NCBI GenBank assembly: GCA_964016885.1
Contig: OZ024742.1
Span: 210,924,001 to 210,988,000 of the forward strand
Reading direction: 5' to 3'
Origin: Eledone cirrhosa
Taxonomy: Eukaryota
DNA: 64,000 bases
Part shown: positions 6,631 through 61,749 of the stretch, in pieces
How the letters are laid out: each line of letters opens with the position of its first letter
Position numbering within the stretch: position 1 is the stretch's first letter
Notes under the pieces: model-generated
What the model was told of the DNA's origin: nothing
Databases searched by the model: none
What the model saw: the letters and a program-made list of their open reading frames with translations, nothing else
Position numbers and translations under genes: made by a program

Positions 6631-6913
6631 CGAGGCAATAAACATAAAAGAATTACAACCAAAATTAAATAGAAAACATGAGTGGAACAGCAACATCACA
6701 ACTTACAATTAAGGAGAAAATGAAAACACACACGCACATAGAACAAACAACCAACCTGTAACATGTAAATAAACAAATAAATAAACGAATATAAACACAC
6801 ACAGACACCCGGTTGTGGCGCATGCGCAGACTGAGCACACAACACACAAACAGAAACAAGATGGCGTAGGACAGAACATAGGAGAGGCACAAAAACAAAG
6901 AAAAGAATCCCCA

Positions 6914-17641: not shown

Positions 17642-19467
<1,826 letters not shown>

Positions 19468-19940
19468 TACAATATTAAATAAATGGAAAACTATATTTAT
19501 AAAACCATATTTATTTCATTATATATATTTCGGGGATATCATATTAACAATATGCTATGCCTTCATCAGACAAAATACAATATAAACAGTTTTATAGATA
19601 AATATATTCGACATACCGTAATAAACATCAACTTCATTTGAAGAGGTTCACTCTAGCAGTGAAAATACAGAGAGAAAGAAAGAGAGAGAGAAAAGAGGGA
19701 AATAAGAAGGAAAGAAAGACGAAACGAAGAAAAGGAAGAAAAAGAAGAAAAAGAAGAAATGCATGGGACAAAATAGAGAGATGGAAAAATAGATAAAGCG
19801 AAGAGCTTCATGTAAAGAGACCGAAAGAGATATATATATATATATAGAGAGAGGAAATAGAGATAGATACATATATAAATATAGATATAGAAAAATTAGG
19901 TAGTGGGAGGTCATTTTGAGTAAGTGTATCAATGATGCAT

Positions 19941-19975
<35 letters not shown>

Positions 19976-20728
19976 GCTCAAGTATTAATGTAAGGGAGAT
20001 ATAGAGAGATATAGAGAGATATAGAGAGAGAAAAATTTAAAAATAGCCAGACATATTCGAGGCGTAGAAAACCCTATGTTTTAATGTATTAGTATTTATA
20101 AAACTTACACTATATTGTAAATATCAGTATTCCTGAATGAAACAAGTATTCACAATGCGTGAAAATTCATTATCTTATGTTTAGTTTTTAAAAAATTCAT
20201 ATGTCTATGTGAATCCAACTGATTCACTCCGCAAATTCAAAGTTACCGGAAAACATTCTCAATGTGGTATAAACATTTGAGCGTATTATTATTCTTGCGA
20301 TTACTCTACAAGATTATCTATCAAGCAGAAATAGAGAGCAGATTTCAATATACTAATCGAAAATATATATTATATTATAAGCAGAGATAACAATAATAAT
20401 GATAATAAGTAAAAATATATAAAAATATAAAAATATAGAATAGAAAACTAAAAAAGAATATTACGAAAGAATATTACATAATAAAAATATTGCATATTAA
20501 AAATACTATGTTTTAAAATTATTACGTATTAAAACTTTACATATAAAAATATTTAAAAATAAAAATAAAATAAAATAAAAAATAAAAAATAAAAATATAC
20601 TCCAAGTATTTGTCGAGTGCTTTTATATCAGTTATAAATATTTACTAGTTGTAACCCAACAATTTTAAATATAACTTTACATGTATCTTGCTCCAATACT
20701 GTTGAGCGCTTTATATTATAACTGAAAA

Positions 20729-22942
20729 ATGGAATTCTTTAAGATTACTTCCTCTCTAAAAGACATACCTCTACCTAGAAACAAAGACTTTGTAAAACAA
20801 CTAATAGATAAATCTGACTCTTTTATAAGGAGAATCAGGTGGCGTGCATTCCACTTTGATAAATTTAATGCAGACGAAAATATCTCGGACTTAAACAAAG
20901 TTTTCAAATCTAAAAGAAATCCACCCCCTAACAAACTTTTATCTGACTTTGAAAACGATATAATTTCTATCATACAAGGGGTCAAATTCAAGAGAAACTT
21001 TAAAGGCCAGGAATATCTGAAAGGCATTAAGGATAACATTGAGAGCTTAGAGAAAACTGAGAAGATCTTGGTGAAATCTGACAAGACCAACAACCTCTAT
21101 GGAGTGCAGAAAGACATGTATAATGGCCTCATACTGAAAGAGCTGAGGAAAAAATACAAGGTAGCAGATAAGACCGAACTTGTGAAAATGAATGTTGAAG
21201 CATCTTGTATAATGCATGAGTTGGAAATTGAGAACAGAACACAACCTTTTGTGCCCAGGAAACCGAAGATCAATATGAAGGACCACAAGAGGAATTTTGA
21301 GATTGACCTGCCAGTTAGATTAATCGCACCTTCAAAATCGGACCTGGGCAAATTAAGCAAAAACATTCTTGACAGGGTGATACTGCAAATTAAGAACTTG
21401 GATTATGTATCTAACCTGAGCTTGTGGAAGGGAACCGGAGAGGTTGTTGAGTGGTTTAGGCAAATTAAATATGACAATAATAATAGGTTTATTCAACTTG
21501 ATATAGCTAACTATTATTCTTCTATTACCCCTAGTCTACTAAATAAGGCACTAAATTACGCATTCAAACATACGGACCTAACTAGCAAAGAAATGCATAT
21601 TATATTATCGGCTAGGAAAACTTTGATAGAATTTGATGACAAATTATGGACCAGAGCAGATAGAGATAGCAATTTTGACATAACTATGGGATCTTCCGAC
21701 TCAGCTCAAGTAACTGACCTTGTGGGCTTATTTTTAATCAATTCGCTACATAGGAAAATACCTGGTACTACCGGAGGTTTATATAGGGATGACATGCTTT
21801 TACTCATTAATAATAATAACCCTGAACTAAATAGAAAATGTAAACAAATTACAAAATTTTTTAATTACTTTAACCTTAAAATAGAAATTGAGAACAACCA
21901 TAGAATAGTCAATTTCCTAGATATAACATTAAATCTCAACACATGTCTCCACTATCCTTTTCACAAGTTGAATGAAAACTTAAACTATGTCAACTTTAAC
22001 TCTAACCACCCCAGATCTGTCAAAAACACTATAGTAAACTCAGTCCAAAAGCGTATCTCTAGGATCTCGTCGAATAGAAAGATTTTTGACGAAAAGGCCC
22101 AATACTATAATGATGCACTAGCTAGGGCAGGGTATGCTGATAAGATTGTGTACATAGATAATGATAAACAAACTAAACAAAGTAACAACTTTTTTAATTA
22201 TGGCAACAACATTAACAACTATAATAGAAAGCATTACAATAATTCCAAAGGACAAAAAAGAAATAGAACTAGGAACATAATTTGGTTTGCCCCCCCTTTC
22301 TCACTAAACATTAAAACCCACATCGCTAAATTATTTTTCAAAGCTCTTGATAATCGCTTCCCTAGAACACATAGGTACCACTCAATCTTCAATAGGCATA
22401 CAATTAAATTAACCTATTCATCCACCAAAAATTTAGCACAAAATATTAATAGAATAAATAATAGGAACTTAAAAACTACTGATAATAGCATAAATAATAT
22501 ACAAGTTAACAAATGCAACTGTAGAGATAGATCTAAATGTCCGTTAAATAACAACTGCTTAGTTAAAAATATAGTATACAATTGTAATGTTAATACTGAC
22601 TCTAATTCTTTTAACTACGTCGGTTCCACATCGACGGAATTTAAACTTCGCTATAATAACCACAAGAATTCTTTCACAGATCCAAATAAAAAATCTTCAA
22701 CGGCACTATCAGGTGTACTCTGGCAACTTAAGCTAGATAACGTTAGATATTCGACGGCTTGGAATATAGTCTCAAGAGGGATTCCTTTTAATTCATCCTC
22801 TGAGACATGTGACCTCTGCGCAGAGGAGATATTCTTTATACTAAAATCTAAAAATTCCCTTAACCTACGGACAAATTTATTCAGTTGTTGCAAACATAGA
22901 TTAAACTCAACGTTTAAATATAAATTTAAATTTAAAATGTAG
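20729..22942 (+). CDS. PLE (Naiad-type) reverse transcriptase/GIY-YIG endonuclease, 737 aa, intact
   Basis: 'SLKDIP', 'SDKT', 'KDHK.NF..PVRLIAP', 'QLDIANYYSSI', 'TMGS.D', 'GLYRDD', 'NFLD', 'CNCRDRSKCPLNNNC', 'NIVYNC..YVGST..FK.R..NH', 'CDLC..E', 'CKH'. Confidence 0.92.
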   Translation: MEFFKITSSLKDIPLPRNKDFVKQLIDKSDSFIRRIRWRAFHFDKFNADENISDLNKVFKSKRNPPPNKLLSDFENDIISIIQGVKFKRNFKGQEYLKGIKDNIESLEKTEKILVKSDKTNNLYGVQKDMYNGLILKELRKKYKVADKTELVKMNVEASCIMHELEIENRTQPFVPRKPKINMKDHKRNFEIDLPVRLIAPSKSDLGKLSKNILDRVILQIKNLDYVSNLSLWKGTGEVVEWFRQIKYDNNNRFIQLDIANYYSSITPSLLNKALNYAFKHTDLTSKEMHIILSARKTLIEFDDKLWTRADRDSNFDITMGSSDSAQVTDLVGLFLINSLHRKIPGTTGGLYRDDMLLLINNNNPELNRKCKQITKFFNYFNLKIEIENNHRIVNFLDITLNLNTCLHYPFHKLNENLNYVNFNSNHPRSVKNTIVNSVQKRISRISSNRKIFDEKAQYYNDALARAGYADKIVYIDNDKQTKQSNNFFNYGNNINNYNRKHYNNSKGQKRNRTRNIIWFAPPFSLNIKTHIAKLFFKALDNRFPRTHRYHSIFNRHTIKLTYSSTKNLAQNINRINNRNLKTTDNSINNIQVNKCNCRDRSKCPLNNNCLVKNIVYNCNVNTDSNSFNYVGSTSTEFKLRYNNHKNSFTDPNKKSSTALSGVLWQLKLDNVRYSTAWNIVSRGIPFNSSSETCDLCAEEIFFILKSKNSLNLRTNLFSCCKHRLNSTFKYKFKFKM

Positions 22943-24039
22943 TATATTTAGTTTGATTTATATTTATATGAGAACTAGCCGATAAATCTTTTGATTCCTA
23001 AATCTTTGATTCCCTCTTTTTACTGTTTATTTTATTGTATTTATTTTTATTTTTATTTTTTATTTTTATTTTTATCTAAACATTCCTCATGAAAAATTAA
23101 GCTACCCTAAAAGCCGATGCTCCAAATTTTATGAATTAACCTTACACTTGATAAACTTATATATTAAATATAGGAACATATGTAGACATTATTGGACATC
23201 ATAACCTTTTTTTTTTTTTTTTTTGCGATATTCCTTGCTAGATGTGATTTGATAGATAATTTTTGGCTTTGTCTTGTAGTGAACTTGGCAATATATTGTC
23301 AATTAACCTTGAAGGGTTGTTCTTTGTGGTTTATTTTTTATTTTTATTTTTATTTTTATTTTTATTTTTATTTTTATTTTTATTCTTTTAGTATTGTAGT
23401 ATTCTATAATATTTTTATATTTTTATTTTTTATTTTTTATTTTATTTTATTTTTATTTTTAATATTTTTATATGTAAAGTTTTAATACGTAATAATTTTA
23501 AAACATAGTATTTTTAATATGCAATATTTTTATTATGTAATATTCTTTCGTAATATTCTTTTTTAGTTTTCTATTCTATATTTTTATATTTTTATATATT
23601 TTTACTTATTATCATTATTATTGTTATCTCTGCTTATAATATAATATATATTTTCGATTAGTATATTGAAATCTGCTCTCTATTTCTGCTTGATAGATAA
23701 TCTTGTAGAGTAATCGCAAGAATAATAATACGCTCAAATGTTTATACCACATTGAGAATGTTTTCCGGTAACTTTGAATTTGCGGAGTGAATCAGTTGGA
23801 TTCACATAGACATATGAATTTTTTAAAAAACTAAACATAAGATAATGAATTTTCACGCATTGTGAATACTTGTTTCATTCAGGAATACTGATATTTACAA
23901 TATAGTGTAAGTTTTATAAATACTAATACATTAAAACATAGGGTTTTCTACGCCTCGAATATGTCTGGCTATTTTTAAATTTTTCTCTCTCTATATCTCT
24001 CTATATCTCTCTATATCTCCCTTACATTAATACTTGAGC

Positions 24040-24074
<35 letters not shown>

Positions 24075-24439
24075 ATGCATCATTGATACACTTACTCAAA
24101 ATGACCTCCCACTACCTAATTTTTCTATATCTATATTTATATATGTATCTATCTCTATTTCCTCTCTCTATATATATATATATATCTCTTTCGGTCTCTT
24201 TACATGAAGCTCTTCGCTTTATCTATTTTTCCATCTCTCTATTTTGTCCCATGCATTTCTTCTTTTTCTTCTTTTTCTTCCTTTTCTTCGTTTCGTCTTT
24301 CTTTCTTTCTTATTTCCCTCTTTTCTCTCTCTCTTTCTTTCTCTCTGTATTTTCACTGCTAGAGTGAACCTCTTCAAATGAAGTTGATGTTTATTACGGT
24401 ATGTCGAATATATTTATCTATAAAACTGTTTATATTGTA

Positions 24440-24500
24440 TTTTGTCTGATGAAGGCATAGCATATTGTTAATATGATATCCCCGAAATATATATAATGAA
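24440..24500 (+). ncRNA. Hammerhead-like motif in Naiad pLTR (inverted copy ~19515-19575; paralog 29509-29570)
   Basis: CTGATGA-agg...catattgttaatatg...ccc-GAAA-TATATA. The stem II hairpin is kept with different sequence in the paralog; stem I is weak. Confidence 0.6.
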
Positions 24501-24830
24501 ATAAATATGGTTTTATAAATATAGTTTTCCATTTATTTAATATTGTAAATATACTCCAAGTATTTGTCGAGTGCTTTTATATCAGTTATAAATATTTACT
24601 AGTTGTAACCCAACAATTTTAAATATAACTTTACATGTATATATATAATATATATATATAATATATATAATATATATTCATTAGTTAAGCAAAACAAGAC
24701 CACAAATTTCACATGGAAGACATTAAAAGATTGTCAACATATTTAGTTTGATGTAAGGAATGTAGAGATAATATATATATATATATATATAATATATATA
24801 TATATACATATATAATATATATATATATAT

Positions 24831-26494: not shown

Positions 26495-29400
26495 ATGCAA
26501 AAGTTCTATTTAAAGTTGTTGGGATACAACAAGTAAATATTTTTATAACTGATATAAAGCACTCGACAAGTTTTTGGAGTAGATATACGATATTAATAAA
26601 TGGAAACTATATTTATAAAACCATATTTATTTCATTATACATATTTCATCAGACCCAGCTCAGACTCAGCTCAGGTAACGGACCTTGTGGGCCTATTTAT
26701 AATTAATTCGCTACATAGAAAAATACCAGGTGTAACCGGAGGATTATATCGTGATAACATGCTTTTACTTATAGAAAATAATAGCTGTGAACTAAATAGA
26801 AAAAGAAAACAAATTATACAATTTTTTAATTACCTTAATCTAAAAATAGAAATAGAGAATAACCATAGAATAGTCAATTTTCTTGATGTAACACTAAATC
26901 TCAACACATGTCTTCACTATCCATTTCACAAACTAAATGAGAACTTGAATTATGTCAACTTTAATTCTAATCACCCCAGATCTGTTAAAAATACTATAGT
27001 GAACTCTGTTCAAAAACGAATTTCAAGAATTTCATCTAATAAAAATATATTTGATGAAAAAGCGCAGTATTACAACGAAGCGTTAGGTAGAGCTGGATAT
27101 AGAAATAAAATTAAATACATTGATAATAATAATAAGCAAACTAACCAAAATAATAACAATTTCAATTACGGTAACAACTTTAACAACTATAATAGAAAAC
27201 ATTACAATAATTCCAAAAGCCGAAAAAGAAATAGAACTAGAAATATATTATGGTTTGCTCCCCCTTTCTCACTAAATATTAAAACCCCTATTGCTAAACT
27301 ATTCTTTAAAGCTCTTGACACACGCTTCCCTAGAACACATAAATATTACTCAATTTTTAATAGACACACTATAAAATTAACTTAATCGTCCACCAAAAAT
27401 TTAGCACAAAATATTAATAGAATTAATAATAGGAATTTAAAACCTAACCAAAATACCAATAATAACCCAAACAATATTCAATTAAATAACTGTAACTGTA
27501 GAAATAAATCTAACTGTCCGTTAAATAACAATTGCTTAGCTAAAAATGTAGTGTACAATTGTAATGTTAAAACTAATTTAAATTCATTTAACTATGTTGG
27601 TTCCACCTCTACAGAATTTAAATTTCGCTTCAATAATCATAAGAATTCTTTCACAGATCCCAACAAAAAATCTTCAACTTCGCTATCTAGCCTACTATGG
27701 GACCTAAAACGAGATAATATTAAATATTCGATGAATTGGAATATTATTTCAAAAGCTACTCCTTTTAATTCCTCTTCAGAGAATTGTGATCTTTGTATTG
27801 AAGAAATATTCTTTATATTAAAGTCCAAAAATTCCCTTAATCTAAGGAATAATTTATTCAGTTGCTGCAGACATAGATTGAACTCAACGTTTAAATATAA
27901 ATTTAAAATGTATAAATAATTAACTAATTTTAGTTAATATATGGAACCTGTCGATAAATCATTAGATTCCTTCACCTTTTTCTTTTTAAACTTTCTTCCT
28001 AAATATAAACAAGGATATAATAAACTACTCTAAAATGTCTATACTTCCAATGTATTAAATAAAATATACGTAAGGTAAATTTCTATACTAAATATAAGGT
28101 TATCTGTAGAATCATTGGGGTTTTTTTTAAATCTTTTAAATTATTTTTATTTATTTGTTTTGATTATGATAGCTTCTCATAACTTTCATAAGTCTACCCT
28201 TTCAATATCTTGATTGAGATATACGTAGGATAAATTTCTATACTAAATATATAAAACATATTATTTTAACTTAAGATACTCTATAGTGTTTTAAAGATAT
28301 TTAATGCTTTGATATTTCTAGATTTCTTTTCTCTATACTGATATAGCTGCATTTCCAAAATATACTCCTTTGGTATTTTAAATTTATTTTGTTATGGCTA
28401 TGTTTACAAGTTATAATCCTTTAGTAATATATTGATATTTGATTATCTCTATGCAAATGCATATGTGTATATTAACATGCATAAAAAGTGTTATAGATTT
28501 TTTTGTGTCTATATATGTCTGTATATATACATGAGTGATGCGTGACAACACACGCAAATATTTATTTATACATATGTATGTGTATATATGTATGTGTATC
28601 TATATATGTGGTTGAGAGGTATGTTGCAGATATGCATAATATTAAACACATGAATGGTAATCGTATATATGAGGACATGAATATTAATCAGATATATTTG
28701 TATATATATATACTGTGAAATTTTTATAACACAGGGAATGTATAGCAGTGATTAAGAGAAATCATTTACGTTTTGTATGGCTATATTGTTGGCTTGAGTT
28801 AAACATAATTTCTATTTTCAGGACATGCGTATCTATATGTATATATATATATATATATATATTTGTATGTCTTTGCATAAAATACTGATCTCTATAGCAA
28901 GGGTACATTTTGAACTCAGATTTTGATATATTGATGTCAAGGTTCTAAACTAAACATATAGTCATTATTGAACAATGTTTAATTTCTCATATTATATATC
29001 TATGTCCCATTCATGAATATTGATACTTATATTTTTATTATTCATTTCATATAAATTGTTAACTCAACTTAATATGACATGACGTAAAGTGTTCATTGTC
29101 CCCCCCCCCCCCTCTCTATATAGTATTTCTCTCTCTTGAGTTTTTCTCTCTGTATGATGACTTGATATCTCTCTGTTGATTTCCTTTGTTTTTCTTATTT
29201 CTTCCTTTTCTTTGTCTTTTTTATTTTTTATTTCCTCCTATCTTTATTTATCTCTTTCTTTTCTCCATACATTTCTCTCTCTCTCCGATATTTCTCCAGG
29301 TTTTCTTTCTTTCTCTCTCTCCGTCTTTGTTCTTTTCTCTCTCTCCGTCTTTTTTCTTTTTCTTTATCTCCGTCTTTTTCTAATTGTGCTTAACACTATG

Positions 29401-29616
29401 ACTTATTAAAACAATATAAACAATTCACTATCCAAACAGCCTCCAAAAGTAATGGTTGTATTTTAAAAGGGTACGTCAAAGTTATTTGTAAAACTGTTAT
29501 ATATTGTATTTTGTCTGATGAAGGCATACCATAATTTAATATGGTATCCCTGAAATATGTATAATGAAATAAATATGGTTTTATAAATATAGTTTCCATT
29601 TATTAATATCGTATAT
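26495..29616 (+). mobile_element. 5'-truncated Naiad-type PLE, related subfamily, with short inverted arm
   Basis: ORFs 26655-27385 and 27551-27919 are homologous to the 737-aa ORF; YRDD changed to YRDN; TAA at 27383; 26583-26648 is an inverted copy of the 3' end, plus tail 26495-26582. Confidence 0.92.
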
Positions 29617-29657
29617 AACATATATATATATTTATAATCTATATATATATAATATAT

Positions 29658-29832
29658 ATAGATGAGATTCTACAGGACTAGAACTGTTTCATTCATTAGA
29701 AATCGATGATTTCTAATGAATGAAACAGTTCTAGTCCTGTAGAATCTCATCTATATTAAAACTTTTATACTCTGCTATGTATTGAGTACCTTACTTACTG
29801 TGGTTACCTCCGATTCAACCCGGTATAACGTA
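29658..29832 (+). mobile_element. Mini foldback: perfect 47-bp hairpin plus 3' tail, containing an HHR 3' half
   Basis: 29658-29704 is inverted at 29708-29754; (c)GATGA-tTTCtaatGAAt-GAAA-C...G-TC. Confidence 0.7.
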
Positions 29833-41134: not shown

Positions 41135-41419
41135 ATAATATATTATATATATATATATTATATATATTATATATTATATATATATATTATATATATATAT
41201 ATATATTATATATATATATAATATATTATATATATATTATATATATATATATAATATATATATATTATATATATATAAATAATATATATATATTATATAT
41301 ATATATATATTATACTTCTCGAAAAACCTGGCATTTCGAGCCACTTTTTCCATATAAAACAAGTAACATTCAGAGACAACCAGTTGTGTGAAAAACCACA
41401 GACCCTCCATCTCAACTCA

Positions 41420-41457
41420 CCTTTTGAAAAGCAGAAGAACTGCGAAACCGGTAAAGG
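41420..41457 (+). ncRNA. Minimal hammerhead, U3-A8 variant (3' copy 46367-46425 with a 21-nt duplication)
   Basis: cctt-TTGAAAA-GCAGaagaaCTGC-GAAA-CCGG-TA-aagg; palindromic stem III. Confidence 0.75.
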
Positions 41458-41622
41458 AACCAAATAAATATATATATATTTTTTTTAAATAAGACTCCAG
41501 TTGCATTTTCGATTTCATCTCTTTTTCTCTATACTTTCACTCGTGTAGGACACCTCGGTTATTTTTCATTTTGTAAAAAAAACCTCACTTTCTAATATAT
41601 ACCCACCACACGAAGACCGAAA

Positions 41623-44600
41623 ATGCACCAAAGTCTCAACAAAACAACAACTCACTGAACCAGGACATCTTAAATGAACTCAAAGAGATTTCCTCTAAAC
41701 TCTCAATTTTGACCAACAAAGTGGACCAAATACACATCTATAAAAAAGGACCCACGAAGAAACAGAAAATACCCAAGAGACGAATATTGCTCCAGTATTA
41801 ACTAAGCTAATCGAAACCATTGAAACAGCAATGCTCCAAAAGCTGGAACAACTGTTAGAACACAATCTACGAGATGTCCACTCAGTGAAAAACACCCTAA
41901 TCAACATATGGACTCAAAAGCTCACAGCCCGCAAATTCGCCCTTTGGAATCTCCTAAAAAATAATGGCAAGGCAGACATATATGAAAAGTGGCTAAACTG
42001 TACCCCAATTATCCTCCCCAAAAAACTCCAAATAAAACCCATCCCGAATGAACCAGAAAACCAACAAAGACTTAGGGAAAAGATGGCATTGGAAAAATTT
42101 AAAACAGAAATAGAACTGTTGCGGTTAAGAGCCAACTCCAACGAAGAAAAATTCAAGTCACTCGACCAACAGATGGACACAGAAATCTCAAAGCACTCTG
42201 AAGGCCTACTCTACAAAAAAAACCTAAAACTTTGGGAAAGAAAACTGTGAGGATGAAGAACTAACATCCCTCCAGTGATGGGAAAAAACACCACCTGGTT
42301 CAACAACTACGAAATGGACTTCAAAAATGAACAACATACAGGTAACCCATTTTTAAAACAAACTAAAACTCACACACCACATGCACAACAAATAACAAAA
42401 AAAGTAACAAAACGTCCAACATACCCCCAGCAAAACTATAACGATAATCCCAGAAACCATAGACAAAACTATAACCCTACTAACAAAAACCAAAGATCCC
42501 GAACACAAGGCAGGACCTGATCCGCAGATCACAACCCACACAAAACCTATTCCAAAACCGTAGACCCCTGCCCACACAGAGCCTGTTCCAAAACCGTAGA
42601 TCCCAACCCACACAAAGGAACAAAATCTACAACCCGGACTATCAACAAACTGAACCTCAATACATCCGAAACTTCTATACAAGACCACACAACAACAGGG
42701 GAAATACCATTAGATATAATAATACCATTGAAAAAACATTCCAGAAAAATCATTTTTTAGACCAAGGCTACAGGACTCACGACACCCGGTGGCACAAACC
42801 GATTTTGAAAACCGAAAATAATTAACATTTCAAATACAAACCTCTCAGCCTAACAAGTAAAATTCTCTCCAAAGGACTGAAATTCACACCAACCACAATA
42901 CCCTAACCCCAACGAGATAAATGACGATATCTCACACTTCTGTAGAAAATTACGTCTCACAGAGGAATTCTTTGACAAGGAGAATAACGACGAATCAATT
43001 GTACGGAATAAAAGCAGCTACAACCCAACAAAAGGTAGAAACAGAGTTCTGGACAAATTTTGTGACCACATAGCTACCTTCCCATACCATGAACTACCGC
43101 AACCTAAACCCAAACCCAACACGAGTCGAAAGGAATGGGAGATTATCCATGAACTAAAAAACAATACGGACATTATAATTAAGGAAGCGGACAAGGGAAG
43201 TACTGTTGTCATTATGGAGGCTGAAAAATATAAAAATTCTATGTTCTCTCTCTTACAAAATACTAATTACTATGAAAGAGTAAAAAACTACCAGCAATCA
43301 AAATTAATGACCAAATTAAACACACTGATTTATCGATACCAGGAAGACCTAACTAAAAAGGAATACAAAACCAGCAACCTTTACGGACTTCCGAAGATCC
43401 ACAAGTGTAAAATAATCAACGATGCCTGTAAACAATCCACCTCAGCCTGCGTGAACACACAATACCCCACAGACCTTAAATTAAGACCAATTGTAGCGGG
43501 CCCACAATGTGAAACACACAGATTGAGCAACTTTATAGACATACTACTGAAACCAATACTGAAACACATACCAAGCCTTGTAAGAGACGATCTGGACCTC
43601 TTAAACCATATCCCAAACATGTCAACAAAGACACTATTATTGTGTCTTTCGATGTAGTGAATCTCTACACAACGATCCCACACCAATACGGACTAGAAGC
43701 AATAGGATTCTGGCTAGAGAAATATCCCAATGAGATACCTGACAGAATAGAAAAAAGCTTCATCACCGAGGGATTAAAATTCATCTTACAGAACAACTTT
43801 TTTGATTTCGATGGCAATACTTACAAGCAAATATCGGGGACTGCGATGGGTACAAAAGCCGCTCCAACTTATGCCAACTTAGTCATGGCATACTTAGAAG
43901 TCCAGATATATGAACAGTCCAAATCAAAATACGGATTGAACTTCCACAAATATTTATCAGAGAATTGGAAACGCTACTTGGATGATTGCCTCATTCTTTG
44001 GTCCCACACACTCGACCAACTGAAGGATTTCAAAAACTTAATAAACGGCATCAATAACCACATCCAATTCACAATGGAATACAGTCAAGATCAACTCCCA
44101 TTTCTGGACATCTTAATCTTAAAAAAAGACACAAATATCGAAACTGACATACACTACAAACCAACAGATTCCAAACAATATCTGTTATTCACCTCCAACC
44201 ATCCAAAGCACATGAAGACGAACATTCCTTTTAACCTAGCAAGAAGAATTTGCACAATTGTCTCCAATTATGAAACGCGAAATAAAAGACTTCAAGAATT
44301 AAAGGAAATTCTACTCGAGAGAGAGTACCCACTATTACTAATAAATAATGGAATAGAAAGGGCTAAAGCAATAGGCATTGATGAATTACGGAAACAGAAA
44401 CAAATTCAAGGTACGTCCAATATTCTATCATATATCTCAACACACAACCCAAGAAATGCGGAAGCTTACAACACTATTCACAATAACATCCCACTACTAA
44501 AACAAAACCCAAGAATGAAAAAAGCCCTTGAAACACACAAAATAATCAAAAGCAAAAGACAACCAAAATCACTGAAAACATTACTCACCAATGCCAAATT

Positions 44601-45030
44601 ACCTACCACAAACCCACAACCAAGTATCAAAAATTGTGGTCGCTCTAATTGTGGAACCTGCACTCACCTCATTGAAGGCAACACGTATACATTTAAATCA
44701 GGACAAAATTTTACTGTAAAAAATCACTTCACTTGCTCATCAAAAAATATACTTTATGCCATTAAATGTAAAGGATGCAATGAAGATTATATAGGACAAA
44801 CTAAACTCACACTCAGAAACAGAATGACAGTTCATCACCAACAATTACGAGATCCAACCACGAGACAGATACCACTAAGTGCACATCTAGACATTTGCGC
44901 AAGTAATAAGACACCCAAATTCCAAGTCTTCCCATTTTACCTTTGCGCTAACAATACAACAGAACAAATGCGAATAAATAAGGAAAATATGTTTATTCAA
45001 AAATATAGACCAACATCAAATATGGTTTAA
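41623..45030 (+). pseudogene. PLE RT/GIY-YIG ORF with frameshifts
   Basis: 'LSKGLKFTP', 'KEADKG', 'YGLPKIHK', 'RPIVAG', 'SFDVVNLYT', 'GTAMG', 'RYLDD', 'PFLD', 'CGRSNCGTC', 'ILYAIKC..YIGQT..R..H'. Confidence 0.9.
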
Positions 45031-46566
45031 TATACACTATGTCAACACCATAATATGACATACACACACACACATAACACCTACTTTAGAAAATAAAACC
45101 CGAACTAAATAAACCTTAACATACGTTTGCACTGAGAATACAACAGAGCAAATACGAATAAGGAAAATATGTTCATTCAAAAATATTCCTACTAAAGGAA
45201 TCATTTTCCTACACACACACACACACAATATATATATATATATTCTCTTCATCTTAACATGCTAACCATACTCCCACACACATAACACCCATACACACAC
45301 ATAACAACCCCCACACCCACAACTCCCTCCCCCATTTCTACTAATAGAACCACTTTCCTACACACATATATATACAAAATATATATTCTCTCCATCTTAA
45401 CATACTCGCACACACACACATAACACCCATATACACACACACACACAACTCCCTCCCCCATTTCTACTAATAGAATCATCTTCCAATACACACATACACA
45501 CACATACACACACACAAGCACACAAATAAACATACATATCTTCACTTCAATAGAAAATCTGAACTCTGACACCCCAGCGAACTAACCATATTCACTGAAC
45601 CAGAACAATTCTCCCAATCCCATTTCTCTTGACCACTATCTTTCCATTGTCATAAATTCTCTATAAAGGCTACAGAATAGTTTTCCAAATAAGGGCGCAA
45701 AAATGTAATGAAAACTTGTTCACGTGACAGCCAAATTTCATTTATAACCAATCAAATCACGTTTATTAAAAAAAAGCCTTCGTGAGCCACCTTTTTAAAG
45801 TAAAGAAATTCAAACACACACACACACAACACACACACACACACACACACAAGCACACAAATAAACATACATATCTTTACTTTCTTTATTCAATAGAAAA
45901 TCTGAATTCTGACACCCCAGCGAACTAACCATATTCACTGAACCAGAACAATTCTCCCATCCCTTTCTCTTGACCATTATCTTTCACTTATCATAAAATT
46001 CTCTAAAAAGGCTACAGAATGGATTTCCAAATAAGGGCACAAAATTTAATGAAAACTTGTTCACGTGATAGCCATAATTTCATTTATAACCAACCAATAA
46101 AAAGCCTACGTGAGCCCCTTTTTTCAAGTAAAAAAGAAATTCAAACACTCATATATGAAAAAACAACCTGTGACAACCCCCCCCCCCTCTTATTTGAAGA
46201 ACTATTGTAACGCGAACTGGCGTGAAATTTATTATAATTATTGACAAACCAATCAAATTACTTCTCGAAAAACCTGGCATTTTGAGCCACTTTTTCCATA
46301 TAAAACAAGTAACATTCAGAGACCAACCAGATGTGAGAAAAACCACAGACCCTCCATCTCAACTCACCTTTTGAAAAGCAGAAGAACTGCGATGAAAAGC
46401 AGAAGAACTGCGAAACCGGTAAAGGAACCAATAAATATATATATTTTTTTAAAAATAAGACTCCAGTTGCATTTTCGATTTCATCTCTTTTTCTTTATAC
46501 TTTCACTCGTGTAGGACACCTCGGTTATTTTTCATTTTGTAAAAAAAACCTCACTTTCTAATATAT

Positions 46567-46680
46567 ATTATATATATATATATTATATATATATATATTA
46601 TATATATATAATTATATATATATATATATATAATATAATATATATTATATATATATATATATATATTATATATAATATAT

Positions 46681-46714
<34 letters not shown>

Positions 46715-47443
46715 ATATATTATATATATATATTATATTATATATATATTATATATATATATTATATATATTATATATATATATTATATATCATATATAT
46801 ATATTATATATATATTTTTTATATATATATATTTTATATATATTATATATATATATTTTATATATATTATATATATATATATTATATATATATATTTTAT
46901 ATATATTATATATATATATATTATATATATATATTTTATATATATAATATATTATATATATATATATTATATATATATATTTTATATATATAATATATTA
47001 TATATATATATATTATATATATATATTTTATATATATAATATATTATATATATATATATTATATATATATATATTATATATATATATATTATATATATAA
47101 TATATATATAATATATATATATTATATATATATTATATATATATTATATATATATATTATATATATATATATATATTATATATATATATATATTATATAT
47201 ATATATTATATATATATATAATATATATATTATATATATATATATATATTTTATATATATATATGGAGGCACATGGCATCCAACTGTAGAAATCAAGCCA
47301 GAATCAGTTCCCGTCCTACCCTTGCAAGCAGGGAAAAGCGGACGTAAAATGAAATGATGATGATGATATATATATATTATATATATATTATATATATATT
47401 CTATTTATATATTATATATATATATATATTATATATATATTAT

Positions 47444-47494
<51 letters not shown>

Positions 47495-47505
47495 TATTTA
47501 TATAT

Positions 47506-47602
<97 letters not shown>

Positions 47603-48258
47603 CATATATTCTATATATATTATATTTATATATATATATTATATATATATTATATTTATATATATATATTATATATATTATATATATATTATATATATAT
47701 TATATTTATATATGTATATTATATATATTATATATATATTATATTTATATATGTATATTATATATATTATATATATATTATATATATATATTATATATAT
47801 ATATTATATTTATATATATATATTATATATATATTATATATATATTATATATATTATATATATATATATATATTATTTATATATATATATATATATATTA
47901 TTTATATATATTATATATATATATTATATATATTATTTATATATATATATTATATATATATATATATTATTTATATATATTATATATATATATTATATAT
48001 ATATATTATATATATATATTATATATATATATTATATATATATATATTATATATATTATATATATATATTATTTATATATATTATTTATATATATATATA
48101 TTATATATATATATATTATATATATATATATTATATATATTATATATATTATATATATATATATTATATATATATATATATTATATATATATATATTATA
48201 TATATATATATTATATATATATATATTATATATATATATATATTATATATATATATTA

Positions 48259-48313
<55 letters not shown>

Positions 48314-48369
48314 TATATATATATATATTATATATATTATATATATTATATATATATATATTATATATA
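46567..48369. repeat. (TA)n tract
   Basis: Seen directly. Confidence 0.95.
47265..47368 (+). mobile_element. Internally deleted SINE family A
   Basis: First 13 nt 'ggaggcacatggc' joined through GGC to the 3' tail. Confidence 0.75.
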
Positions 48370-51072
48370 GATAATTAATATATCAACTAACATAAGCGCA
48401 CAGATGCACGCCCATGCCAGCAAATACACAGGTTATGTCATAGTACCTAGGTGGTTCAATGCAGGAGAATGCAGAACAATAATATAAAGGACGTAAAATA
48501 AGAAAATATTTTTTTAAAAAAAATTAAAAAAAAATTTTTTTCTTACTTAAATTTTCACTCCAACTAATTAGTTTCTGCAATGGGATAAAGACAGTTACGT
48601 AATCCAACTGTCGAGAATTCATTGCGTCATCAGGAAGTCTATTCTCAGTTAAGTCTCCAGGCAATGCGCGGACACTGGCGGCTCATATAAAAATAATAAT
48701 AATTCGGTAGATCGAACAGCTTGCGAGGACTGGATTCTATGTACCGAAATTCTCACTGCTTCAAGTCAAATGGCCGATTCTAAAGAATCAATCACGTGAC
48801 ACAGAGGCTAGTTAGAAGGAATGGGATGGTAAGATGACTGACGCCTACTAACACCCCAAAAAAAATTTTTTTAGAAGTGGTTTTGACAAGTTTGCTCGAC
48901 AAATCAGTGATTTGGAGATAAATATAGATAATTTAATATATCAACTAACATAAGCGCACAGATGCACGCCCATGCCAGCAAATACACAGGTTATGTCATA
49001 GTACCTAGGTGGTTCAATGCAGGAGAATGCAGAACAATAATATAAAGGACGTAAAATAAGAAAATATTTTTTTAAAAAAAATTAAAAAAAATTTTTTTCT
49101 TACTTAAATTTTCACTCCAACTAATTAGTTTCTGCAATGGGATAAAGACAGTTACGTAATCCAACTGTCGAGAATTCATTGCGTCATCAGGAAGTCTATT
49201 CTCAGTTAAGTCTCCAGGCAATGCGCGGACACTGGCGGCTCATATAAAAATAATAATAATTCGGTAGATCGAACAGCTTGCGAGGACTGGATTCTATGTA
49301 CCGAAATTCTCACTTCTAAAGAATCAATCACGTGACACAGAGGCTAGTTAGAAGGAATGGGATGGTAAGATGACTGACGCCTACTAAACACCCAAAAAAA
49401 TTTTTTTAGAAGTGGTTTTGACAAGTTTGCTCGACAAATCAGTGATTTGGAGATAAATATAGATAATTTAATATATCAACTAACATAAGCGCACAGATGC
49501 ACGCCCCATGCCAGCAAATACACAGGTTATGTCATAGTACCTAGGTGGTTCAATGCAGGAGAATGCAGAACAATAATATAAAGGACGTAAAATAAGAAAA
49601 TATTTTTTTTAAAAAAATTTTAAAAAAATTTTTTTCTTACTTAAATTTTCACTCCAACTAATTAGTTTCTGCAATGGGATAAAGACAGTTACGTAATCCA
49701 ACTGTCGAGAATTCATTGCGTCATCAGGAAGTCTATTCTCAGTTAAGTCTCCAGGCAATGCGCGGGACACTGGCGGCTCATATAAAAATAATAATAATTC
49801 GGTAGATCGAACAGCTTGCGAGGACTGGATTCTATGTACCGAAATTCTCACTGCTTCAAGTCAAATGGCCGATTCTAAAGAATCAATCACGTGACACAGA
49901 GGCTAGTTAGAAGGAATGGGATGTAAGATGACTGACGCCTACTAACACCCCAAAAAAAATTTTTTTAGAAGTGGTTTTGACAAGTTTGCTCGACAAATCA
50001 GTGATTTGGAGATAAATATAGATAATTTAATATATCAACTAACATAAGCGCACAGATGCACGCCCATGCCAGCAAATACACAGGTTATGTCATAGTACCT
50101 AGGTGGTTCAATGCAGGAGAATGCAGAACAATAATATAAAGGACGTAAAATAAGAAAATATTTTTTTAAAAAAAATTTAAAAAAAATTTTTTTCTTACTT
50201 AAATTTTCACTCCAACTAATTAGTTTCTGCAATGGGATAAAGACAGTTACGTAATCCAACTGTCGAGAATTCATTGCGTCATCAGGAAGTCTATTCTCAG
50301 TTAAGTCTCCAGGCAATGCGCGGACACTGGCGGCTCATATAAAAATAATAATAATTCGGTAGATCGAACAGCTTGCGAGGACTGGATTCTATGTACCGAA
50401 ATTCTCACTGCTTCAAGTCAAATGGCCGATTCTAAAGAATCAATCACGTGACACAGAGGCTAGTTAGAAGGAATGGGATGGTAAGATGACTGACGCCTAC
50501 TTTACGTCCTTTATATTATTGTTCTGCATTCTCCTGCATTGAACCACCTAGGTACTATGACATAACCTGTGTATTTGCTGGCATGGGCGTGCATCTGTGC
50601 GCTTATGTTAGTTGATATATTAAATTATCTATATTTATCTCCAAATCACTGATTTGTCGAGCAAACTTGTCAAAACCACTTCTAAAAAAATTTTTTTTGG
50701 GGTGTTAGTAGGCGTCAGTCATCTTACCATCCCATTCCTTCTAACTAGCCTCTGTGTCACGTGATTGATTCTTTAGAATCGGCCATTTGACTTGAAGCAG
50801 TGAGAATTTCGGTACATAGAATCCAGTCCTCGCAAGCTGTTCGATCTACCGAATTATTATTATTTTTATATGAGCCGCCAGTGTCCGCGCATTGCCTGGA
50901 GACTTAACTGAGAATAGACTTCCTGATGACGCAATGAATTCTCGACAGTTGGATTACGTAACTGTCTTTATCCCATTGCAGAAACTAATTAGTTGGAGTG
51001 AAAATTTAAGTAAGAAAAAAATTTTTTTTTAATTTTTTTAAAAAAATATTTTCTTATTTTACGTCCTTTATA
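48370..51072 (-). mobile_element. Tandem array of ~557-bp HHR monomers (3.9 copies) plus one inverted monomer; retrozyme-like
   Basis: Units start at 48370, 48927, 49462 and 50021; inversion at 50500/50501; no ORF; one HHR per unit. Confidence 0.92.
50918..50999 (+). ncRNA. Type I hammerhead ribozyme (minus-strand copies start at 48557, 49114, 49651, 50209)
   Basis: acttc-CTGATGA-cGCAATG..GACAGTT..AACTGTC..CATTGCa-GAAA-CTAATTAG-TT-ggagt. Confidence 0.82.
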
Positions 51073-51520
51073 TATATTATATATATATATATTATATATA
51101 TATATATTATATATATATATATATTATATATATATATATATTATATATATATATATTATATATATATATATTATATATATATATATTATATATATATATA
51201 TATTATATATATTATATATATATATATATATTATATATATATATATTATATATATATATTATATATATATATATTATATATATATATATATTATATATAT
51301 TATATATATATATTATATATATATATTATATATATATATTATATATATATATATATTATATATATATATATATTATATATATTATATATATATATTATAT
51401 ATATATATTATATATATATATTATATATATATATATATTATATATATTATATATATATATTATATATATATATTATATATATATATATATATTATATATA
51501 TATATATATATTATATATAT

Positions 51521-51552
<32 letters not shown>

Positions 51553-51733
51553 TATATATATATATATATATTATATATATATATATATTATATATATTAT
51601 ATATATATATATTATATATATATATATATATTATATATATATATATATATTATATATATTATATATATATATATATATTATATATATATATATATATTAT
51701 ATATATTATATATATATATATTATATATATATA

Positions 51734-51776
<43 letters not shown>

Positions 51777-51803
51777 ATATATATTATATATATATATATA
51801 TAT

Positions 51804-51835
<32 letters not shown>

Positions 51836-51858
51836 ATATATTATATATATATATATAT

Positions 51859-51897
<39 letters not shown>

Positions 51898-51948
51898 TAT
51901 ATATATATATTATATATTATATATATATATATATATTATATATATATA

Positions 51949-51999
<51 letters not shown>

Positions 52000-52010
52000 A
52001 TATATTATAT

Positions 52011-52042
<32 letters not shown>

Positions 52043-52060
52043 ATATATTATATATTATAT

Positions 52061-52092
<32 letters not shown>

Positions 52093-52180
52093 ATATATTA
52101 TATATTATATATATATATTATATATATATATTATATATATATATATATATTATATATATATATATATATTATATATATAT
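51073..52180. repeat. (TA)n tract
   Basis: Seen directly. Confidence 0.95.
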
Positions 52181-52338
52181 ACAAGCAAATTATAAATGTA
52201 AACATGTAAGTATGTTTTTGAAACGGTGCGCGAGTTTGAAAATTAGAAATTATAAGCTTTCACCGTATTTTAGACTAAAGAAATTTCTCACCTGATAGTG
52301 GGGTTTATAACCCTCGGAGAAATGGAAAAAGATGAGTG

Positions 52339-52410
52339 TTGCCGTACATGGGAGTCGAACCCACATCTTTGGTTATCCAGACCAATGTGCTACCATTACA
52401 CCAATACACA
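52339..52410 (-). pseudogene. tRNA-like sequence (pseudo-tRNA or SINE head)
   Basis: TGGTGTAATGG A box, TTGGT-CTGGATA-ACCAA arm, GGTTCGACTCC T-loop; acceptor stem imperfect. Confidence 0.55.
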
Positions 52411-54476: not shown

Positions 54477-57400
54477 CATGCTGTAAAATAGAGGGGTAGA
54501 GAGGGCTCTTGAGTCTAGTAAGGCATCCTCTCTAGTGCTGGTGGCACGAATAAAAGCACCCAGTCCATGCTGTAAAGTGGCACTGGTGTTAGGAAGGGCA
54601 TCCAACCAGTGTATCAATGCCAAAACAATTATGAACACAGCAACAAATATATAGGAACAACAAAAATATGAAGACGTCGCATCTCAGAGTTGCAACACTT
54701 AATGTTGGCACTCTCAGAGGTAGATCTGGTGAAATAGTGGAGATGCTGGAGAGAAGGCATGTGGATGTGTGTTGCGTGCAAGAGGTGAGATGGAGAGAGA
54801 CTAGTCACAGGCAAATATCTTAGCTATAAGCTTTTCTGGGTAGGTAAGGATGATGGGTTAGGGGGAGTAGGCATTGTCCTGGCTGAGAGATGGATCAATA
54901 AGACAATAGAGGTAGTTCGAGTTAGTAATCGAATAATTAAGCTTAGATTAGTTGTAGGCAGGAGACTACTGACAGCTCCAGGATGGTTACACTGGGGTAC
55001 ATGGTGGGCACGGTTACGGCTCAAGAAATGAAGAAGGAGTGAGACTTCTTGAATTTTGTGATGCAAGTACACTGACTATTTGCAACACAAACTTCCAGAA
55101 ACCTGCCAATCACCTAATAACCTACAAATCAGGTGAGCACATAAGCCAGATTGACTTCTTACTGGTTAGGCAACGGGACAGGCAGATGGTGTCAAATACC
55201 AAGGCATACTCTGGGGAAGAATGTACCCCACAGCATAGGTTAGTCGTTAGTGATATCTCAGTAAGCAAGAGATGGAATGAGACATACAGGAAGGTGTGGA
55301 GAAGAAAGGTCTGGAAGCTAAAAGATCTTTCACTAAAATACAAATTTAGGAAAGCCCTTCAAGATGTGTATGACGAAAGGAGATGATTTAGAGTTGTATG
55401 ACATAGATAATAACTGGAATTTCTTACGTGACAACTTACTGCAGGCTACTGATGAAACTTGTGGCTGGAGCAGAGCTCCAACCAGACAGAGAGTGACCTG
55501 GTGGTGGAACAGCACAGTAGATAAGGCCATTAGAGACAAAAGACTAGCATGGTAGGCTTGGAAAAAGGGTGGGAGTAGGGAAGGATATACAGCTGCTAAG
55601 AGAGAAGCTAGACGTCAGGTGTACTTAGCACGCAGGGAGGCTGAGAGTAGGAGGTTTGCCAATGTTCTGCGACGGGAAGATCAGAGGTGTGCGGTGTTCC
55701 ACATTACAAGGCAGTGTGTCAATGCAAATCAGGATGTTGTTGGAGATAAATGTGTCCGGAATGATGCCGTTGTACTTAGTGTCACGAATGATCAGAAAAA
55801 GGAGGCCTGGAAATGTCATTATGAGAGACTGATGAATGTGGAGAACGAATGGGAGAGAGAGAAATTACCCCTGGTAGATCCGACAGAGGGACCAGCTATT
55901 GAGATTGACGAATATAGGGTCCAAGAGGCGATTAGGGAAATGAAAAATGGTAAGGCTGCTGAACCGTCGTGGATAGTTGCTGAGATGCTGAAGGCATCAG
56001 GGGACGTAGGCACTAAACTGGTTGCATGCATCATCAATCAGGCTATATATGGTGGTGTCATACCCAAAGACTGGTGCAGCAGTATTCTCATAAATTGCTA
56101 CAAAGGTAAAGGGGATGCTCTGGAGAGGAGCAATTATAGGGGTATAAAACTGATAGATCAGGTTATGAAAGTGGCAGAAAGGTTATTAGCACAACTAATT
56201 AGAGAAAGGGTCAAACTAGAGGAGATGCAGTTTGGTTTCATTCCTGGGAAAAGTAAAACAGATGCCCTCTTGGTGAGACAATTACAAGAGAGGTTCTTAG
56301 AGAAGAATAAGCCACTATACTTAGCCTTTGTTGACCTAGAGAAGGCCTTTGATATGGTACCCCGATCTGTCATCTGGTGGTCCCTAAGGAAACTAGGTGT
56401 TGAGGAATGGCTTGTGAGAACAGTGCAAACTTTGTACAGTGGTACTGTCAGTAAAGTCAGGGTAGGAATGGAGTTTAGTGAGGAATTCCAGATACAAGTA
56501 GGAGTACACCTGGGTTCTGTCCTCAGCCCGCTCTTGTTCATTATAGTCCTCCAAGCCATAACAGGATTTTCAGACTGGCTGCCCATGGGATTTTCTCTAT
56601 GCTGACGATCTGGTTCTTATAGCAGAATCAGTAGAGGAGCTAGAGAATAAATTCTGGCTATGGAAACAGCAGTTGGAATGAAGAGGACTGAGAGTGAACC
56701 TATCTAAGACAAACGTGTTGATGAGTAGAAAAGAGGACAAAACTCGGATTCTGTCAGGGAAATGGCCATGTTCGATATGCAGAAAAGGAACTGGCATACA
56801 TTCTATAAAATGCACACAATGCAGATCCAGGGTACACGAGATGTAGTGGGATAGCAGGCAAACTAACAGGTAGGGAGAAATACGTATGCAGTAGATGTAC
56901 AGGGAAATTAGACAGTAGAAGTCGCATTGATAGACACATTTTTCAAATGCAGGCGGGTGCTATAGAAGTGGTGGATAACTTCCGGTACCTAGGAGATCAG
57001 ATTAGCATGGGAGGGGTGGGGGTGTTCCGAGGCCATAGTATCTAGAATAAGGACGGGTTGGAAGAAGTTTAGGGAGCTGCTTCCTCTGCTGACGAAGAAT
57101 GGTTTTTCCCTGCGTACAAAAGGCCGTTTATATGATGCCTGGGTGAGGAGAGCGATGCTGCATGGTAGTGAGACATGGGCAGCAACTGCAGAGGATATGC
57201 GACGGCTGCAGAGAAATGAGCAAGCATGCTCCGTTGGATATGCAATGTCAATGTGCGTGAACGGCCCAGCATGGATGTGTTGAGAGAGAAACTGTGTCTG
57301 AGAGGGATAGAATGTAGTGTGCGAGAGAGGAGACTGAGGTGGTATGGACACGTGATGCGCATGGAGGATGACCAATAGGTGAAGAAGTGCCAGGAAATGC

Positions 57401-60525: not shown

Positions 60526-61749
60526 ATGCCCACACGGAAACGTTCAAGACTTACCTCCAAAAAAGATACAGGTACTGCTTTGAGACGACGAATTTGGCGT
60601 TCTCAGGTATGCATTCATTCACAATTGGTTAATCCTTTATGCAATATTCACCCTTAATGTTAGCAAGCACTGCGTTTATCCTAACTGTCACCACTTTTAA
60701 GCAACTACAACATTCTAATCGTAGTTATATTAAATTTATTGTCTTACCTTGATTCCCTTTTGTTCATATTACACTTTTCTCATTTACAAAGGGCAGAGTG
60801 CCTTTGGCTTAGCTAACCAGTAGCATTAATTAACTTTCTCTAGGAAACACCTGCTGAGCGCGAATCTCGACTCGCTGATAGACGTCTTTCCCGGCTGGTT
60901 GAGTCACCAACATCCCGTACGACGCGGCTTGCTGGTGTTCGCCTTCGTCGCCAACAAGCACTAGTGGAGGAGTCACCAACATCCCGTATGACAAGGCTTG
61001 CTGGTGTTCGCCTTCGTCGCCAACAAGCACTAGTGGAGGAGTCACCAACATCCCGTATGACAAGGCTTGCTGGTGTTCGCCTTCGTCGCCAACAAGCACT
61101 AGTGGAGGAGTCACCAACATCCCGTATGACAAGGCTTGCTGGTGTTCGCCTTCGTCGCCAACAAGCACTAGTGGAGGAGTCACCAACATCCCGTATGACA
61201 AGGCTTGCTGGTGTTCGCCTTCGTCGCCAACAAGCACTAGTGGAGGAGTCACCAACATCCCGTCAGACGAGGCTTGCTGGGGTTCGCATTCGTCATCAAC
61301 AAATGCTTGCAGAGGAGTCCACGGCAGACAGAGACAACAGGCTTGCTGCTAAACGTTCCCGGCATACATTAGCTACTGCTGCCAAGAGCTCAGGCTGGGT
61401 AAAAGCAGCCTTCAGATATAACCCCTCTGAGGATTACGGACTTCTGCCTACAGTTTCCATTAGCAAAATGGATAATGTCTGTACATCCTGCAAGGCAATG
61501 AAGTGGCCAGGCAAGGCGCCTTCTGTGTGCTGTGCAGGAGGTAAGGTGCAACTAGAGGCATTGGCTGACCCGCCAGACGGTCTTCTGAATCTACTTACAG
61601 GTGACGACACTACGGCTACAACGTTCCACCGTAATATGTGGAAATACAACTCCTGTTTCATGATGACCTCCTTTGGTGTAGACAATAACAACACCAACAA
61701 CAGCGTGAACCCCAACAACAATGTTGCACCTGTGATGCGCGGGAAGTAA
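60526..61749 (+). CDS. Truncated Helitron RepHel N-terminus; predicted exons 60526-60606 and 60844-61749
   Basis: 'CTSCKAMKWPGKAPSVCCAGGKVQL..F.RNMWKYNSCFMMTSFG' is the typical Helitron N-terminal Zn region; phase-0 GT-AG intron keeps the frame; no Rep or helicase motifs follow. Confidence 0.75.
60898..61320 (+). repeat. 69-bp coding tandem repeat, about 6 copies
   Basis: EESPTSRMTRLAGVRLRRQQALV repeated. Confidence 0.95.

Follow-up and report, generated by a model that had tools for sequence, protein, structure and literature searches.

In a 64,000-nucleotide (nt) stretch of the Eledone cirrhosa genome (assembly GCA_964016885.1, contig OZ024742.1, positions 210,924,001 to 210,988,000; hereafter the window, to which coordinates refer), a 557-nt non-coding repeat forms two head-to-head arrays between TA microsatellites. 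The element itself is of a known kind, a retrozyme lacking long terminal repeats (a non-LTR retrozyme), and it bears the footprint of Penelope-like element (PLE) insertion, with one arm ending at a site that we call A and the other at a site B. Judging from sequence, we consider it probable that such copies are pasted into TA microsatellites by an enzyme of the Hydra clade of PLEs, which would prime on both cut strands and copy a predicted and probably circular RNA of 557 nt. The fuller proposition, that a dimer of the Hydra-clade reverse transcriptase (RT)-endonuclease reads two RNA signals on one such circle, with one start site per strand, and copies the circle twice by rolling-circle reverse transcription, is advanced only tentatively.

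The array and its flanks occupy 46.5-52.2 kb of the window. Window positions 50501-51057 served as the 557-nt reference unit, M (GC 0.36), with M positions counted from 50501. The main features are:

46561 to 48369: left (TA)n target tract.
48365 to 50500, minus strand: long arm of 3.87 units, head to tail, with M207 as its inner (5') end and site B, in (TA)n, as its outer (3') end.
49314 to 49315: location of the 21-nt deletion in unit 2.
50501 to 51073, plus strand: inverted arm of 1.03 units, with M1 as its inner end and site A, in (TA)n, as its outer end.
50630 to 50634, plus strand: site B, TATAT at M130-134, internal copy; the B end in use lies at about 48365-48370 on the minus strand.
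51069 to 51073, plus strand: site A, TATAT at M12-16, the outer end in use on the inverted arm.
51074 to 52181: right (TA)n target tract.

In the orientation of the hammerhead, each arm has its 3' end on the outside, facing the TA repeats, and the 5' ends abut at 50500/50501, where the two arms overlap by 1 nt. The inverted arm runs from M1 to M16 of the following lap. A preceding sequence-only reading of the window had described about 3.9 head-to-tail copies plus an inverted arm of one monomer and slightly more, as the measured 3.87 and 1.03 laps bear out. The periods that it gave (557, 535 and 559) hold within the choice of anchor, one anchor yielding 558/536/558 and another 535/559. The deletion of about 21 nt that it placed in unit 2 is present in the assembly and recurs at none of the other fetched loci, against 326 full forms. 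Also as stated there, the unit holds no open reading frame (ORF): the circularized sequence has no coding capacity, its longest stop-free frame being 52 codons. A target-site duplication is unreadable inside (TA)n.

A search of the same genome with the unit returned 161 matches, most of them 99-100% identical, in the 40 of 422 candidate places that were scored; the repeat is thus a dispersed family and not the single-locus satellite that would have contradicted the sequence-only reading. Extrapolation from contig C1 gives about 690 loci. When contigs of four coded runs of unknown kind were compared with 481 nt of the unit, one run showed many variants at very high summed depth and the other three only scraps, a result to which we give no weight. 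By sequence comparison this is a young, dispersed, non-coding family that was recently amplified. Two sets of regions were fetched: 38 regions (36 loci and two extensions) around matches to the unit body, and 100 regions comprising 99 loci on contig C1 whose end junction is exact, together with a single C3 locus selected because it seemed to be an exception. The remaining 7 of the 106 C1 junction loci were already in the first set.

Outer ends proved to be fixed. Among loci picked by the unit body, A or B accounted for 53 of 55 outer ends, and for 53 of the 54 that have a TA flank; the two exceptions come from alignments that broke off within an A/T run. The two sites are about 120 nt apart, and their exact junctions to (TA)n number 273 for A and 579 for B genome-wide. 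Of 80 two-armed insertions, 73 were A+B, one was A/A, none was B/B and six were left unresolved by the script; all 24 outward-facing pairs on contig C1 were A+B. On that contig, two-armed copies number 63 and one-armed copies 47. The best fit to these ends is twin priming in which each strand has its own site. The sequence-only reading had missed that the two ends are Penelope 'tail' sites, one per arm, and that a likely Hydra-clade helper lies in the same window. The sole A/A head-to-head insertion, L096 (G000:C3:56250700-56255900), has arms of 2.85 and 4.93 laps and a change common to all eight units. Sister families 70-94% identical to the unit (L033:7675-7935, L038:1881-2602, L238, L244 and L246) are likewise arranged A+B head to head, with stubs down to about 30 plus 140 nt.

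In contrast to the ends, arm length is free. A survey of other loci for variable copy number with fixed arm ends, as the sequence-only reading had proposed, found arms of 0.05-11 laps with their outer ends at A or B. On C1 the median was 1.04 laps and counts dropped with length, 5 of 173 arms exceeding five laps. The exactly one inverted lap to which the earlier reading had given meaning is not a rule of the family: only 4 of 146 arms measured 557-590 nt, and long arms stopped near their own priming site in 5 of 131 cases against 8.7 expected. Inner ends at M1-3 (4 of 154 against 0.8 expected; post hoc, P = 0.01 uncorrected) are too weak an excess to keep. Where the two arms meet (n = 73), 38 junctions have a 1-10 nt overlap, 12 are blunt, 19 carry short inserts and 4 are of other types.

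Both A and B read TATAT, matching a nicked (TA)n primer. Other TATAT sites, at M116 and M367, are not fixed ends and have no motif behind them. The elements in and around the tail are:

50521 to 50544, plus strand: bulged hairpin 4 nt behind site A; in sister families its stems are nearly invariant and its loop variable.
50566 to 50620, plus strand: long hairpin within the A-to-B tail, conserved in sister families, with two pairs changed on both sides.
50639 to 50661, plus strand: CTCCAA-N-TGTCGAG motif 4 nt behind site B, also found behind both priming sites of the Hydra element described below.
50758 to 50763: CACGTG box, inside a block kept in sister families.

The bulged hairpin behind A and the CTCCAA-N-TGTCGAG motif are candidate enzyme-binding signals. 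The bulged fold is not the minimum-energy structure behind B in the unit of this locus, nor behind the Hydra A site, so we claim only a sequence motif behind B. That motif occurs 373 times in the 1.26 Mb of fetched DNA, against 1-6 times in shuffles, nearly all copies being in the retrozyme and the Hydra element; since the loci were chosen for carrying these elements, the count speaks for specificity and not for abundance. The CACGTG box is possibly an internal promoter element.

The candidate helper lies in the same window:

19462 to 24640, plus strand: Hydra-clade Penelope-like element with an open 737-aa ORF (20729-22942) and a hammerhead at about 24446.

Its inverted arm (19460-20598) ends at its own A site and its direct arm at its own B site. 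The ORF contains RWR at residues 37-39, DKT at 118, CNCRDRSKC at 596 (CxCX5C), YVGST at 630, CDLC at 694 (CxxC) and CKH at 721 (CxH). Its Atlas neighbours carry HTH_animal/GIY-YIG; there was no Pfam match and no PDB sequence match. In its RWK-type motif, DKT, linker, CxxC and CxH, C-terminal endonuclease, hammerhead and (TA)n target, the element matches the description of the Hydra clade in section 11 of PMC8557442. Many copies are 100% identical over the first 120 aa and retain 738-codon open frames, and along the first 163 Mb of C1 every outward pair (21 of 21) is A'+B'. Because the A/B layout and the motif behind the priming site are common to both, the Hydra-clade element is likely the helper of the retrozyme. 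Alignment of the unit to four 3' regions in the window gave no score above those of shuffled sequences, and only the motif of about 20 nt was common.

A second Hydra-type element occupies 26500-29660 of the window. Its ORF (26600-27919) is broken, an inverted stub on the left bears the CTCCAA-N-TGTCGAG start-site motif, and close to the right end lies a related hammerhead.

The sequence-only reading had assigned each unit a complete type I hammerhead with a palindromic stem III, a GUU site, a long stem II and a C-A mismatch. All five such motifs were found, four on the minus strand and one on the plus strand:

48557 to 48638, minus strand: hammerhead copy 1, long arm.
49114 to 49195, minus strand: hammerhead copy 2, long arm.
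49651 to 49732, minus strand: hammerhead copy 3, long arm.
50209 to 50290, minus strand: hammerhead copy 4, long arm.
50918 to 50999, plus strand: hammerhead of the inverted arm, predicted cut after 50994 (M494).

Each comprises a stem I of 5 bp, a stem II of 6+8 bp with a C facing an A at its base, a stem III within a 12-nt palindrome and the cut triplet GUU. Alone, the palindrome makes no stable hairpin; with a second copy it is predicted to pair at -10.8 kcal/mol, a dimer-dependent design of the PLE type as in PMC4209133. The stems covary: in a set of five sequences, few and related (the unit's own and those of sister families), 93% of cells were paired, six pairs were changed on both sides and one pair occurred in four forms. 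Self-cleavage after M494 is predicted. Folding of the circle gave branched hairpins (z -3.6 against 40 shuffles) and not a rod-like fold of the viroid type. In the monomer circle the ribozyme did not form (stem I probability 0); the antisense strand folded with z -1.6 and has no ribozyme motif. The 3' part of the hammerhead core has 13,135 exact matches genome-wide, so the sister families form a large group, of which the members seen share 70-90% identity with the unit, and some pieces up to 94%. At least ten further hammerhead families lie in the flanks of L031, L042, L044, L061, L091, L100, L128, L130, L137, L140, L160 and L222, several having a long stem II and differing in their palindromic stem III loops, and two in tandem at spacings of 310 and 657 nt.

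Whether a circle or a linear multimer was copied is reflected in the sequence of the arrays themselves. We compared 81 multi-unit loci, with A/T runs masked and 421 positions kept, covering about a fifth of the loci. Differences from M were locus-wide in 184 cases, confined to a single unit in 89 and partly shared in 9. The 41 loci with at least three units fell into 17 haplotypes, each locus being nearly uniform over both arms; uniform arrays reach about 14 units over both orientations. Locus-wide changes include T11A in 9 of 9 units and A406T in 8 of 8, and at five loci a change was found in every covering unit and in no other sampled locus. Where both arms cover the same lap, none of the unit-specific changes was mirrored against 38 that were not, with one mirrored at an offset of one lap. 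No indel was present at the cut site in 382 junctions, which disfavours template jumping between linear monomers. Each array therefore goes back to a single monomer sequence, which is what a rolling circle would produce, and the single haplotype per locus across both arms favours rolling-circle copying. On the premise of twin priming, we put the chance that the circle was the main template at roughly two in three. Mosaics also occur: at L036 (G000:C7:80086500-80096400) three of 14 units, not adjacent to one another and distributed over both arms, carry G394A, and L138 has three mosaic-variant sites like it. Such mosaics could each arise by gene conversion, from a multimer template or from damage to a template base.

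Some inner ends fall at the predicted ribozyme cut. Seven of 160 can be placed at M494/495, the mean for any one position being 1.0, and six lie strictly at M493-496 (P = 0.001, uniform null). At L081 both arms end at the cut; at L078 (1.36 laps) and L095 (2.14 laps) one arm each passes uncut ribozymes before ending there. Inner ends at this position may be traces left by in vivo cleavage and by linear templates. Of the rolling-circle reverse transcription primed from both target strands that the sequence-only reading had proposed, priming on both strands is upheld by the A+B footprint and the rolling circle is favoured by the haplotypes, with L078 and L095 suggesting linear multimers at times.

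These observations could be joined in the following way. Arrays would be transcribed from an internal promoter. In the transcript, neighbouring hammerheads are predicted to pair via the palindrome and to cut after M494, a step of which the genome holds traces and which would release monomers alongside partly cut multimers; the monomers would then be ligated into circles. A Hydra RT-endonuclease dimer might bind the motifs behind A and B and nick both (TA)n strands, each nicked 3' end pairing with a UAUAU of the RNA. One cDNA would begin at A and the other at B, each running for a variable number of laps, and the cDNA ends would be joined head to head with a 0-10 nt overlap or a short insert, or one arm would be lost; these last steps are seen as the footprint. 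At the studied locus the B arm would have run 3.87 laps and the A arm 1.03.

The same helper and the same twin priming could also act mainly on a linear multimeric transcript, partly cut, with uniformity supplied by rare circles or by homogenisation at the DNA level. The arms at L078 and L095 that reach the cut past uncut sites, and the two at L081, fit such a template, as does the fall in arm numbers with length (median 1.04 laps on C1), and the main in vitro substrate of the anole element was unprocessed RNA (PMC11167929). However, 5' truncation can only shorten arrays, yet 17 haplotypes form uniform ones, and the tally of 0 mirrored against 38 unmirrored unit-specific variants also counts against it; we therefore regard a mainly linear template as somewhat unlikely. 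A more distant proposal derives the inverted arm from self-priming or fold-back of one nucleic acid, the endonuclease setting the second end, as self-priming has been proposed for head-to-head repeats of rotifer Penelope elements (PMC3846280). Junctions joining nearly equal monomer positions do exceed expectation (12 of 80 against 4.5, P = 0.0014), and some junctions lie inside palindromes or carry short fold-back inserts. But fold-back requires one arm to be contained in the other, which fails at 12 of the 73 A+B loci, most junctions join unrelated positions, either arm may be the longer, and same-position junctions are also expected when two enzymes run off one RNA end. This origin is improbable.

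That the unit is instead the tandem pseudo-LTR (pLTR) of an autonomous Penelope-like element not found here, the arrays being by-products, is brought to mind by Xenopus retrozymes that match pLTRs (10.64898/2026.07.22.740005), by the PLE type of the hammerhead and by the small samples of the 13,135 core matches inspected. No ORF-linked copy of the unit turned up in 137 family regions, 60 GIY-YIG loci or 20 solitary hammerhead matches (20 of 32 such among the first 100 of the 13,135), and sister families at 70-80% identity close on themselves too, which makes this account very improbable. A sister piece near an endonuclease at L186, considered as an autonomous partner, turned out to be a separate (TA)n insertion. 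A satellite that spread as DNA, or a fault of the assembly where (TA)n makes it difficult, would draw on the long (TA)n flanks and A/T runs that give small indels between units and on a locus read from the assembly alone; more than 130 fetched regions differ in length and junctions and keep the same two outer ends, and the ribozyme stems covary, leaving this the most far-fetched of the accounts.

Several points weigh against insertion by a Hydra-clade enzyme with one start site per strand and against a circular template. The A/A locus L096, the hand-picked C3 exception, breaks the A+B rule, and so does one apparent B'/B' Hydra pair on C2. The link to the Hydra element consists of a motif of about 20 nt and a common layout, the sequence of the motif behind A is not that of the Hydra motif, no autonomous element with the unit as pseudo-LTR was found, and other Penelope families of this genome target (TA)n too. 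As regards the ribozyme, stem II has a C-A pair at its base that may reduce activity, Rfam at its gathering score returned no hammerhead (and one tRNA elsewhere), and eight of nine assayed Xenopus retrozyme dimers did not cleave (10.64898/2026.07.22.740005). The excess of inner ends at the cut is tied by M541/542, in an A/T-rich stretch (7 each); inner ends at M498-557, an A/T-run hairpin, number 45 of 154 against 16.6 expected, and none of 60 one-armed ends lies at the predicted cut. Very young uniform source arrays would also give uniform arrays, unit-specific changes may in part be assembly errors, and the arms at L078 and L095 fit linear multimers better than a circle.

In its non-coding tandem units of a few hundred bases, with one type I hammerhead each, low GC and dispersal, the family resembles the metazoan non-LTR retrozymes (PMC7229834; 10.64898/2026.07.22.740005), for which circles and PLE mobilisation have been proposed (PMC7229834). 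The sequence-only reading had thought the monomer unusually long, but 557 nt is ordinary since it lies inside the published range of 51-972 bp for animal retrozymes (10.64898/2026.07.22.740005). Cleavage and circles have been demonstrated in those retrozymes, whereas here they are predicted. Unlike them, the present family shows head-to-head double arrays, two fixed ends with one per arm, and a candidate helper clade with a common motif; the word 'inverted' is absent from the main text of PMC7229834, whose supplements could still show inverted copies. Instead of the canonical hammerhead architecture of coral and mussel (6-bp helix I, 4-bp helix II with loop contact), the unit has a PLE-type variant. 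Because minimal hammerhead motifs are also accepted for retrozymes (10.64898/2026.07.22.740005), this variant is compatible with membership.

Insertions of endonuclease-bearing (EN+) Penelope-like elements (PMC8557442; PMC3846280) share with our arrays partial tandems, an inverted 5'-truncated copy, a one-sided tail and (TA)n targets. Their tail is 30-40 nt against about 120 nt here, and our family differs in having no ORF, many laps on both arms and a counted A+B rule; the unit lacks the RT and GIY-YIG endonuclease ORF of an autonomous PLE. The Anolis Poseidon element in vitro (PMC11167929) has two internal RT start sites bounding the tail, extension of both target strands, a predicted dimer and a need for RNA 3' of the start sites, all of which we count as likenesses. 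In contrast, its start site shares no homology with the DNA that is cut, and the same sites serve both strands, whereas here TATAT matches the target and each arm uses a different site. Compared with the Hydra clade (PMC8557442), the retrozyme has the layout and one start-site motif, but no coding sequence or further detectable pLTR homology. In the literature consulted and in the PMC8557442 supplement (hammerhead 3' core) we found no one-A-one-B rule, Hydra-tied retrozyme or ribozyme-cut ends, a statement on which further supplements may bear.

PLE mobilisation of animal retrozymes through circular RNA has so far been a hypothesis lacking a matched enzyme-template pair, and how tandem and inverted PLE insertions are assembled is stated as unresolved in PMC8557442. 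The present family supplies footprints that can be counted, a candidate template of 557 nt and a candidate enzyme that is young and intact; both questions are therefore testable in one in vitro reaction. If our reading of twin priming by a Hydra-clade enzyme is true, the head-to-head structure of Penelope insertions would reflect obligate asymmetric twin priming, and the family would be a minimal natural substrate whose enzyme is intact in the same genome.

The window holds further elements. A Penelope element with direct terminal repeats and a broken ORF lies at 41314-46561; by its clade motifs we take it to be Neptune-like. Its family has 22,882 candidates, many with 775-codon frames, and a hammerhead-like core starting TTGAAGA is visible by eye ahead of its right repeat. 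The minus-strand fragment at 5328-6702 belongs to a third Penelope-like family; its 3' region contains a hammerhead-like core, again seen by eye. Both were considered as helpers and rejected, as their similarity was not above that of shuffles and the motif lists contain no copy in them. A LINE at 14438-17305 (minus strand), itself in (TA)n, combines endonuclease, RT and a PHD-finger insert in a 955-codon open frame, and LINE fragments occur at 8979, 12783, 54973-57000 and 61818. Just past the right TA tract, a tRNA-like match on the minus strand (52343-52407; Rfam, 43.5 bits) is possibly the head of a SINE. Finally, 60844-61749 on the minus strand contains a 301-codon frame with a 69-nt repeat present 5.8 times, followed by a Cys-rich stretch reminiscent of Helitron proteins.

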